Shown here in pieces: positions 41,637 to 43,211 of a stretch of 64,000 nucleotides of DNA (positions are counted from its first letter, which is position 1; each line of letters starts with the position of its first letter). The position numbers were made by a program, and so were the translations under genes. The stretch is from Candidatus Levyibacteriota bacterium (GTDB lineage Bacteria; Patescibacteriota; Microgenomatia; Levybacterales; UBA12049). The stretch spans positions 848,112 to 912,111 of the forward strand of contig PLZJ01000002.1 in NCBI GenBank assembly GCA_003152105.1, written 5' to 3'. The notes under the pieces were generated by a model, which did not search any database, had not been told where the DNA came from, and saw only the letters and a program-made list of their open reading frames with translations.

Positions 41637-43211
41637 ATGAAAATTTCTTCCTTATTTCAATCAAAAAAACCAGTAGTCACTGAAAAAGTAGAGCCAATCC
41701 AAAAAGAATTTGTTCAAGTCGAACAAGTTTCCCCTCAAGTAAATAAAGAATCGCAGCTTAGAACGGAAAAATTAGTCTCTGATGCATCAAAACCTAGGGG
41801 AGGTGTATGGAAATATCCACCATTATCATTATTGAGTGATGAAGAAGCTAAACCAACTACACTCACAACAGATGTTAAAAATTATGCGAGAATCATTGAA
41901 TTAACTGCAGAAGTTTTTGGTTTAGATTCAAAAGTAATTGAACTAAATATAAATAGGTTTACAATACAGTTCTTGTTAGAAATGTCAGATATTAAGGAAG
42001 CATCAAAATATATTTCTTTAACAAATGAGTTTGCATATGCTTTAAATTTTCAATCTGAAAAGGTACAAGTTTATGAAGTAATTGAGGAAAAGACAAATTT
42101 AATAGCTGTTGAGTTACAAATAGGTAGCATTACATCTCCTTCATTAAAAACAGTATTATCATCTACTGTAAGTCAAAAAAGTAAATCTAAACTTACTGTA
42201 TTTTTAGGATTAGACAAAAATGCTCATATATTTGCTGCTGATATTAAACTTATGCCCCATATGTTAATAACTAGTATGGTAAATGATAGCATTACTAATT
42301 TTTTTAATTCAATAATTATGTCACTTCTATTTAGAGCATCACCAGCTGAAGTAAAGTTGGTTCTAATTGATACAAAACGCGTAGAACTTAATTCATTTAA
42401 TGGAATTCCCCACTTAATGACTCCAGTTATTGTAGAACCTGAAAAGGTGCTTTCGGCACTTAAATGGTCTATGGGAGAGATGGATAGACGCTTTAAGGCC
42501 TTCTCCGAGAATGGAATAAGAAATATTGAAGAATATAACGAACTAAATGGTTATCAGGCCTTACCATATATTTTAATCATGATAAATGAATTTGCTGAAA
42601 TGGCTGCATATGCACCTATTGAATTAGAGGATGCTTTAATAAGAATTGCAAAAATGGGACATTCTACAGGCGTTCATTTAATTATTGCTACACAAAATCC
42701 CCATAACAAAATTTTTAATAAACTTCTGCAAGCACCAATTTCTGTTAAAGTAGTAGTCAATAAGTCTTCTCAAGATAATAATTCAGTTAATAATTATGAA
42801 TTAGTCTATTCAGATTTAGTACATTCAAAACCAGTATTTATATTTAATACATCAGTTAAAGAAAGCGAGATTAAAATGCTTATTGAATTTTTAAGAATGC
42901 AAGGTAGTCCAGTTGAATATACAGAAGAAGTTTTAACAAAACCGGTAGTTGCAAGAAAAGATAATGGAAATACCTCGGTAAGCAGTAGAGATGCACTTTT
43001 TGAAAATGCTGTTAGAGTAGTTTGTCAGCATGACCGAGCTTCTGCATCTCTTTTACAAAGAAGACTTCAGGTTGGATATTCAAGAGCAGCCAAAATTTTA
43101 GATGAACTTGAAGAAGCAGGAATTGTTGGTCCGGGAGACGGAGCAAAACCACGAGATGTATTAACTCAAAATGCAGAAGCTAAAATAGCACAACTAAATA
43201 AAAATGAATAA
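41637..43211 (+). CDS. FtsK/SpoIIIE-like protein with degenerate ATPase motifs and an intact gamma (wHTH) domain
   Basis: Aligns along FtsK alpha/beta/gamma. Walker A replaced by [10 protein letters not shown]. Walker B DE becomes NE ([10 protein letters not shown]). Arginine finger ATQRP becomes ATQNP. Gamma domain [31 protein letters not shown] is conserved. Confidence 0.8.
   Translation: [524 protein letters not shown]

Follow-up and report, generated by a model that had tools for sequence, protein, structure and literature searches.

What use does a bacterium have for an FtsK-like protein that lacks the catalytic residues of a DNA pump? The question is posed by a gene in a 64,000-nucleotide stretch of a Candidatus Levyibacteriota genome (assembly GCA_003152105.1, contig PLZJ01000002.1, positions 848,112 to 912,111 of the forward strand), which we call the window; the gene product is designated P0001. 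Textbooks present FtsK as a fast DNA pump whose gamma domain reads the polarity of the chromosome. The comparisons described here are best explained if P0001 derives from the FtsK of its own cell and is still functional although its ATPase is dead. On this view it gave up the membrane anchor, the binding and hydrolysis of nucleotides, and the C-terminal third of the motor domain, but retained the gamma winged helix along with some of the alpha/beta scaffold. We think it probable, if well short of certain, that the protein acts as the DNA-reading and docking subunit of a two-gene module, the other member of which is an Mrr-family nuclease. Direct support exists for three points: the catalytic motifs are lost, the dead protein evolves under purifying selection, and dead FtsKs stand next to the nuclease gene or, in some relatives, are fused to the nuclease.

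P0001 is recognizable as an FtsK-family protein along its length. The Pfam profile FtsK_SpoIIIE (PF01580) matches residues 170-355 (3.3e-39, 135 bits) and FtsK_gamma (PF09397) matches residues 450-510 (1.1e-25, 89.5 bits), while FtsK_alpha (PF17854) is marginal, at 23.7 bits against a cut-off of 22.9. The top solved-structure match, Pseudomonas aeruginosa FtsK (2iut, E 1e-56), spans alpha, beta, and gamma. In NCBIfam, P0001 falls far under the cut-off of the FtsK equivalog (184 versus 1566 bits) and has weak EssC/EccC matches. The original prediction, made from the letters alone, had the protein aligning end to end with the FtsK motor; all three domains are indeed detectable, but alpha is heavily diverged and residues 357-410 are eroded.

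Motif states were read from a MAFFT alignment of P0001 with its 119 best homologues among 5.8 billion proteins. Where all 119 have the Walker A sequence AGTTGSGKS, P0001 has TSMVNDSIT; the Walker B aspartate, again present in 119 of 119, is N317, with the following glutamate kept as E318; and the arginine of ATQRP, the arginine finger of the FtsK-HerA superfamily, is invariant in the homologues and N354 in P0001. The three substitutions first reported are thus confirmed, and no intact P-loop lies elsewhere within the protein. Damage is distributed unevenly over the domains. Alpha is 33% identical to canonical FtsKs, whose orthologues are ~89% identical among themselves, and keeps 15 of 48 invariant columns. 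Over residues 357-410, the final third of beta, identity is 24%, 5 of 31 invariant columns are kept and 11 residues are deleted. Gamma, which had been described as highly conserved, is the best-preserved part of the protein, with 19 of 19 invariant columns kept. Its sole near-invariant change is R486K in the recognition helix, at a position that presumably contacts bases and that holds a glutamine in one dead relative.

Neither a frameshift nor a miscall accounts for these lesions. A frameshift or compensated frameshift at Walker A was ruled out, as the other two frames are filled with stops and the region differs from the paralogue by many in-frame point substitutions. Base-calling error is excluded because the identical protein is present on three assembled contigs and like lesions occur in six further relatives.

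The relation of P0001 to the resident FtsK bears directly on whether the gene works at all. The scaffold (1.14 Mb) also encodes a normal 703-aa FtsK, P0002, ~590 kb from the P0001 gene, with membrane segments, intact motifs and a housekeeping context (IF2-S15-PNPase-RNase J-FtsK). The two proteins are 50% identical (E 4e-179) in an alignment that includes the usually variable linker, and P0002 is the nearest of all sequences to P0001 in the linker, the beta-gamma linker and gamma. The best FtsK matches of P0001 carry Levybacteria names, and the genome is a low-G+C (33%) member of the Patescibacteria. Homology to P0002 begins at about residue 157-165 of that protein, right behind its last hydrophobic segment. 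The N-terminal membrane domain is accordingly missing from P0001, as originally noted, and the DNA upstream holds no remnant of it. Between P0001 and P0002 the beta core (residues 226-300) is 70-78% identical and gamma 87% identical, with a nonsynonymous rate (dN) of 0.10 and a ratio of nonsynonymous to synonymous rates (dN/dS) of ~0.1. Synonymous sites are saturated throughout (proportion of synonymous differences 0.56-0.86), gamma included, so that gamma conservation reflects selection and recent gene conversion is ruled out.

Is P0001 then a functionless duplicate of ftsK, a pseudogene in progress? The loss of the catalytic motifs and of many invariant residues would suit such decay, as would the lack of an obvious Shine-Dalgarno-like sequence 5' of the ATG. 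We nonetheless give this explanation practically no credence. The 524-codon reading frame is open in a genome of 33% G+C, whereas simulated neutral decay of P0002 to the observed 52% identity produced a mean of 18.5 stops, left the frame open in 0 of 300 runs and introduced at least 9 stops in all 300. In addition, dN/dS is ~0.1 in gamma and 0.23-0.34 among the dead relatives described below, whose partnership with a nuclease and whose fusions are conserved. On this comparative evidence, the P0001 gene is a working gene under purifying selection and not a pseudogene.

The original prediction proposed a recognition or recruitment role and missed the recruited partner, which is the Mrr nuclease P0121, encoded two genes downstream, always adjacent to such dead FtsKs and fused to one of them in P0295. 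Direct searches gave no hint of this. Canonical FtsKs made up all of the top 120 matches among the 5.8 billion proteins and, at 44-46% identity, everything returned by a scan of 185,579 species genomes. P0001 therefore looked like a singleton; a scan of viral contigs with a dead-FtsK profile gave one distant FtsK-like match (29%). Homologues that share the dead state do exist, but they surfaced solely by way of the neighboring nuclease gene, a family profile and an exhaustive search of representative proteins. In other metagenomes, an FtsK-like gene that encodes 514-545 aa and lacks the membrane domain lies immediately upstream of each of the closest homologues of P0121 (62-67% identical). These pairs are found at L086, L087, L088, L092, L093, and L094, which together with the window gives an adjacency of 7 of 7. 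The FtsK-like and Mrr genes are the sole genes common to the pair loci, and in the six loci other than the window they overlap or stand 0-8 bp apart. Genes for serine recombinases, a terminase subunit, PIN, HipA, and Rep are among the neighbors of family members.

The operon-type dead proteins comprise six distinct sequences (P0001, L086, and P0224-P0227). Their Walker A sequences read TSMVNDSIT, ASNVTELV, GTTDSGIS, or GTTDYGIF, with the lysine lost in 6 of 6; Walker B reads NE, FE, NG, DG, DG, and DG; and the arginine finger, replaced by N, T, E, E, E, and E, is also lost in every one. Gamma is intact in the dead FtsK-like proteins of the other pair loci. Between members with unsaturated synonymous divergence (dS 0.24-0.93), dN/dS is 0.23-0.34 overall; for alpha it is 0.16-0.24, for the beta core 0.09-0.28, and for gamma 0.07-0.35. 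The shared lesions together with dN/dS below 1 indicate that the dead state is conserved and maintained. Family-wide loss of the Walker A lysine and the finger, purifying selection and a gamma domain kept best of all support the predicted pseudo-ATPase, one that would serve recognition or recruitment and not translocation.

Fusions tie the two functions together still more closely. The exhaustive profile search of 1.84 billion representatives recovered P0295, in which one open reading frame (ORF) carries all three FtsK domains, the family N-domain and Mrr_cat. Its Walker A reads WGYNRSELE, its Walker B NE, and its finger position L; its nuclease part is 53% identical to P0121 over the full length. 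A second protein, on human-microbiome viral contig L141, joins a membrane segment, gamma and a P-loop-less FtsK fragment to Mrr_cat, and the beta fragment corresponds to FtsK_SpoIIIE profile positions ~47-150, matching the best-kept beta core of P0001 (residues 226-300). The deposited temperate phage PQ006094 encodes a more degenerate relative with a membrane segment, a gamma or gamma-like winged helix-turn-helix, a P-loop-less beta fragment and Mrr_cat. Gamma alone is also fused to Mrr_cat in both orders, N-terminally in P0136, P0137, and P0139 and C-terminally in P0191, with further gamma-Mrr_cat fusions at L122, L138, and L106; on viral contigs, gamma is directly fused to or abuts the nuclease in 5 of 80 Mrr_cat loci, L141 among them. 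In further members of the nuclease family, located beside serine recombinases and a Rep gene, a membrane helix and coiled coil replace the FtsK part. By the Rosetta-stone argument, the operon pairs and fusions indicate that the two genes work together. The representative search also returned P0439 (476 aa), which has one N-terminal membrane helix, a deleted alpha, the Walker A sequence GNDNSGKT with its lysine kept, DD at Walker B, a lost finger, and an intact gamma.

The partner nuclease looks catalytically competent, as judged from its sequence and predicted structure. Residues E143, D165, D169, Q182, and K184 of P0121 are invariant among 49 homologues, and the AlphaFold model is confident (mean predicted local distance difference test score, pLDDT, 88.8), with a restriction-endonuclease fold. 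The N-terminal 125 residues form a helical, family-specific domain with no Pfam or fold match; the fold search matched the C-terminal nuclease fold only. P0121 does not have the N-terminal winged-helix DNA-binding domain that Mrr and type IV enzymes carry in cis.

Tightly coupled genes of this kind, sometimes overlapping and with the dead FtsK upstream, could also represent a toxin–antitoxin-like addiction or abortive-infection pair, in which Mrr would be the toxin and the dead FtsK its inhibitor or sensor. PIN and HipA genes and mobile-element contexts lie close by, and the dead FtsK evolves faster than the nuclease (family dN/dS of 0.23-0.34 versus 0.14-0.15). Set against this, the fusions in P0295, L141, and the gamma-only proteins are more what one would expect of a recognition module acting in cis than of a labile antitoxin, and an antitoxin of 520 aa would be atypical. 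We regard such a pair as improbable.

We favor instead a mechanism in which the dead FtsK reads DNA for the nuclease. Gamma recognizes motifs for FtsK at the FtsK orienting polar sequences (KOPS) (PMC3384302, PMC5052618). In the proposed module, gamma would bind double-stranded DNA and recognize sequence much as FtsK reads KOPS-type 8-mers, the remodelled alpha/beta body would provide docking for the family-specific N-terminal domain of the nuclease and probably also oligomerization, and the Mrr nuclease would be the effector. The dead FtsK would in this way take over the part that a DNA-binding winged helix plays in cis in classical Mrr and type IV restriction enzymes. From comparative genomics we infer physical interaction of the dead FtsK with the nuclease, targeting of DNA by gamma, and a role in defense. 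Its most likely function is restriction or exclusion of incoming DNA, which would make the module a pump-less variant of the "HerA/FtsK capture" counter-invader theme.

Several points weigh against this interpretation. If gamma reads the KOPS-like motifs of the host, avoidance of self-cleavage would need explaining. Alpha and beta are under purifying selection as well, so gamma-mediated DNA binding is not the whole story. An AlphaFold model of the dead FtsK, built from a five-sequence alignment of the dead family only, had a pLDDT of 34 and was uninformative on docking and oligomerization. The operon-type family is small: it numbers six distinct proteins, which fall into three lineages and four of which come from a single sequencing project, and to these one fusion lineage can be added. 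Every member is known from metagenomic assemblies. In the window alone a 59-aa ORF separates the dead FtsK and Mrr genes; its membership of the module is uncertain. Finally, PADLOC-DB 2.0 gave no system-level match for the pair; the FtsK-like core partially matched SspH and mad8, and Mrr_cat partially matched ZorD and PDC-S02. Rare as the family is, and known only from metagenomes, comparison strongly supports a functional unit of dead FtsK and nuclease.

A preserved gamma domain could alternatively serve site-specific recombination. A free, motor-independent gamma would then activate a XerD-type recombinase, either for a mobile element or in chromosome dimer resolution. P0001 R475, the equivalent of the key FtsK gamma contact R1289, is an arginine in 119 of the 119 best homologues. 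Gamma alone activates XerD (PMC3130261, PMC5052618), in E. coli also when fused to it, and phage-encoded Xer activators are known (PMC6744903). However, the conserved partner of the dead FtsK is a nuclease and not a tyrosine recombinase, in no locus is a Xer gene or dif-like site linked, some gamma-Mrr fusions have M or K at the position of R1289, and the genome retains a normal FtsK for that job. Xer activation is therefore, in our judgment, very improbable.

The ancestry of the dead proteins is mosaic. In alpha they are mutual nearest neighbors, and nine derived residues, mostly in this domain, are common to the six dead proteins (L91A, A108F, D131E, L132F, T136L, Q142K, V168P, A212T, and V221N); P0295 carries just three of the nine. 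In the beta core, linker and gamma, the closest canonical FtsK differs by lineage: for P0001 it is the FtsK of its own genome, for L086 it is P0103, and for the L087 group P0109. A single origin followed by recombination with the resident ftsK, repeated capture with convergent remodelling, or long-branch effects may explain the pattern. Because gamma and adjoining regions of each dead lineage lie nearest a particular canonical FtsK, while the alphas share derived residues, the mosaic hints that bacteria, and the mobile elements they carry, have domesticated FtsK repeatedly as a motor-less reader of the host's polar KOPS-type words and coupled it to Mrr, self and non-self being told apart by KOPS content or orientation. 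This idea is doubtful; if true, cutting would depend on a signature of host chromosome organization, not on methylation or guide RNAs.

The same resemblance to particular FtsKs (in P0001, of the beta core at residues 226-300, the beta-gamma linker, and gamma to the FtsK of its own genome) would also fit a decoy or poison subunit, that is, a dead FtsK that joins active FtsK-type hexamers of the host, a conjugative element or a phage and so brings the nuclease to DNA being pumped, with gamma kept for compatibility. Purifying selection on alpha and beta fits this explanation, and the membrane anchor that replaces the FtsK part in some nuclease-family members suggests action at the membrane. A localization role has been proposed for "capture" systems (PMC10853773). 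Yet gamma-only Mrr_cat fusions recur and cannot co-assemble with a hexamer. The C-terminal third of beta is eroded, and alpha, which has a part in building the FtsK ring, has been remodelled more than any other domain. We consider the decoy unlikely.

Comparison with characterized systems helps to place the module. In the literature searched, we found no description of an inactive FtsK paired with an Mrr nuclease, nor of an FtsK_gamma plus Mrr_cat architecture. With cellular FtsK/SpoIIIE, represented by P0002, P0001 shares homology over the linker, alpha, beta, and gamma, the last with all its invariant residues; it differs in having no membrane domain, in the lost Walker A, Walker B aspartate and finger, in its remodelled alpha and eroded beta end, and in its location in a variable island beside a nuclease gene, where P0002 has a housekeeping context. 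Bacillus subtilis likewise has a soluble FtsK paralogue, SftA, which lacks a membrane domain and occurs alongside a membrane-bound member of the family. Unlike P0001, SftA keeps its Walker motifs and works as a translocase, and it has no link to a nuclease.

FtsK/HerA domains have been captured by nuclease-containing defense systems, DndH/DndFGH and relatives among them (PMC10853773, PMC12839542). Shared with these are an FtsK/HerA-superfamily domain of cellular or mobile origin, a restriction-endonuclease-fold nuclease predicted to be active, a winged helix-turn-helix, and mobile or defense neighborhoods. In the known systems, however, the translocase is presumed to pump invader DNA to the nuclease, whereas here, judged by sequence, the motifs for ATP-driven translocation are lost in 7 of 7 dead proteins; moreover, the module is minimal, consisting of two genes or one fusion, and the captured piece includes the KOPS-reading gamma of cellular FtsK. 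Winged-helix-fused type IV endonucleases have also been described (PMC11037411). Such enzymes and E. coli Mrr share with the present module an Mrr_cat domain and the delegation of recognition to a winged helix; here the winged helix is an FtsK gamma, not Mrr_N or DpnI-like, and in the window it would be supplied in trans by a 524-aa dead motor. The dead-FtsK/Mrr module is thus best classed as a variant both of nuclease systems that capture FtsK/HerA modules and of winged-helix-guided Mrr nucleases.

Two further precedents may be compared. The FtsK-like type VII secretion ATPases EssC/EccC hold degenerate ATPase domains (PMC11090510), and resemble P0001 in that an FtsK-family P-loop domain without hydrolysis motifs is kept as a structural or regulatory module. 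In EssC/EccC, however, the dead domains are extra ones within an active multi-ATPase membrane protein that has no gamma, whereas P0001 has just one P-loop domain, which is dead, and is partnered with a nuclease. A phage small terminase contains FtsK_gamma (PMC8190038), and the TLC-phi Xer activation factor (PMC6744903) is a second case in which the gamma module or its activity is used by mobile elements outside a translocase. Their partners are a terminase or a Xer recombinase, without a nuclease or a dead motor body.

These comparisons suggest why the family deserves attention. A conserved subfamily has, it appears, dropped the pump, kept the reader and been tied to a restriction-type nuclease in three ways, as an operon, as a full fusion and as a fusion of gamma alone, which provides a testable example of a pseudo-enzyme descended from an essential cell-division protein. 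The FtsK/HerA capture theme would be extended to a non-translocating form, splitting a "localize/recognize" role from a "pump" role, and the module, with its two proteins, is a minimal setting in which to study how a nuclease may be programmed by gamma-type winged helices. The family also draws attention to proteins of phage and candidate-phyla genomes whose annotation goes no further than "restriction endonuclease" or "DNA translocase FtsK". Coordinates of the domains, fusions, and neighboring genes are collected in Table 1.

Table 1. Coordinates of the dead FtsK, its partner nuclease, neighboring features in the window and fused relatives at other loci
Feature	Location	Strand	Description
FtsK-like ORF, P0001	41637..43211	+	524 aa, ATG start; ATPase-dead FtsK paralogue without membrane domain
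Alpha domain, remodelled	41811..42131	+	aa 59-165
RecA-like beta domain, degenerate	42132..42866	+	aa 166-410; core aa 226-300 well kept, last third aa 357-410 eroded
Former Walker A	42270..42296	+	aa 212-220; TSMVNDSIT in place of AGTTGSGKS
Former Walker B strand	42573..42590	+	aa 313-318, LIMINE; D to N317, E318 retained
Former arginine-finger codon	42696..42698	+	N354 within ATQNP
Gamma winged-helix domain, intact	42984..43172	+	aa 450-512; Pfam FtsK_gamma, 89.5 bits
CxxC ORF	43204..43383	+	59 aa; two CxxC pairs, zinc-ribbon-like; 8-bp overlap with FtsK stop
Mrr-family PD-(D/E)xK nuclease, P0121	43388..44140	+	250 aa; Mrr_cat 1.7e-26; proposed effector, downstream of P0001
PDC-S39 protein	39801-41570	+	589 aa; DUF7380/DUF4209; PADLOC single-gene defense candidate, 1e-46
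Type IV secretion-like cluster	34421-39561	minus	M23 peptidase, VirB4-type ATPase, TraC-like, PrgI, TrbL fused to pilin-like N terminus, TrbC/VirB2 pilin
SOS-type cassette	44162-46260	minus	LexA (S24 peptidase), 86-aa ORF, DinB-type Y-family polymerase
SRAP-domain protein	47154-47831	+	close to SOS-type cassette
P0295 fusion	L178 2602-5061		819 aa, one ORF; FtsK_alpha + FtsK_SpoIIIE + FtsK_gamma + family N-domain + Mrr_cat
L141 fusion	L141 4579-6378		599 aa, human-microbiome viral contig; membrane segment + gamma + P-loop-less FtsK fragment + Mrr_cat
Phage PQ006094 relative	L177 3515-5344		annotated just "restriction endonuclease"; between integrase and lysis genes

The P0001 gene is flanked by genes that might be taken for further components. 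The PDC-S39 gene stands directly upstream and is in none of the other dead-FtsK/Mrr loci; the 59-aa ORF, which matches no family, does not occur at the six other pair loci. As neither is conserved in any other locus, both were set aside as module components, with some uncertainty in the case of the 59-aa ORF; the PDC-S39 gene is a neighbor within a defense-type island.

On the far side of PDC-S39 lies the type IV secretion-like cluster, which recurs with the same gene order and a 64-79% identical VirB4 in 80 metagenomic loci; near the cluster no relaxase or coupling protein was seen. FtsK-like coupling proteins occur in Gram-positive conjugation, and the P0001 gene is 2 kb from this pilin-TrbL-PrgI-TraC-like-VirB4-M23 array, so P0001 could in principle be a degenerate TcpA/TraB-like coupling protein of the adjacent cluster. 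That explanation is extremely improbable. The P0001 gene is transcribed divergently from the cluster, P0001 has neither an active P-loop nor a membrane anchor, and the dead FtsK-Mrr pair is found elsewhere without secretion genes. Of the 80 related loci, 22 reach 4 kb or more past the pilin gene, and 0 of the 22 carry an FtsK-like, DUF4209, or Mrr gene there. The comparison with TcpA-type proteins drawn in the original prediction thus fails, since in related loci the cluster never comes with an FtsK-like gene. The slot beyond the pilin is variable, holding a restriction-modification pair in one relative and housekeeping genes in another. At L076 (3838-6978), a 725-aa fusion of a LexA DNA-binding domain, an S24 peptidase and an Eco57I-type N6 methyltransferase occupies the slot beside the pilin, followed by a BsuBI/PstI-type restriction endonuclease; the pair may be an SOS-wired restriction-modification system. 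The DinB and 86-aa genes of the window's SOS-type cassette are seen again as a pair near the secretion cluster of another relative, L083.

Other parts of the window hold three more genes of note. A Fic/DOC protein with a C-terminal winged helix (28570-29745, minus strand) adjoins the only tRNA gene of the window (tRNA-Gln), where no integrase was seen. A 1097-aa ORF without any family match (51781-55074) adjoins the gene for an unusual 1087-aa fusion (48287-51550, minus strand) that combines a SNF2/DEAD-type helicase core with Pfam matches to sigma-70 regions 2 and 4 and a C-terminal MzaA-like region (PADLOC 5.5e-35).

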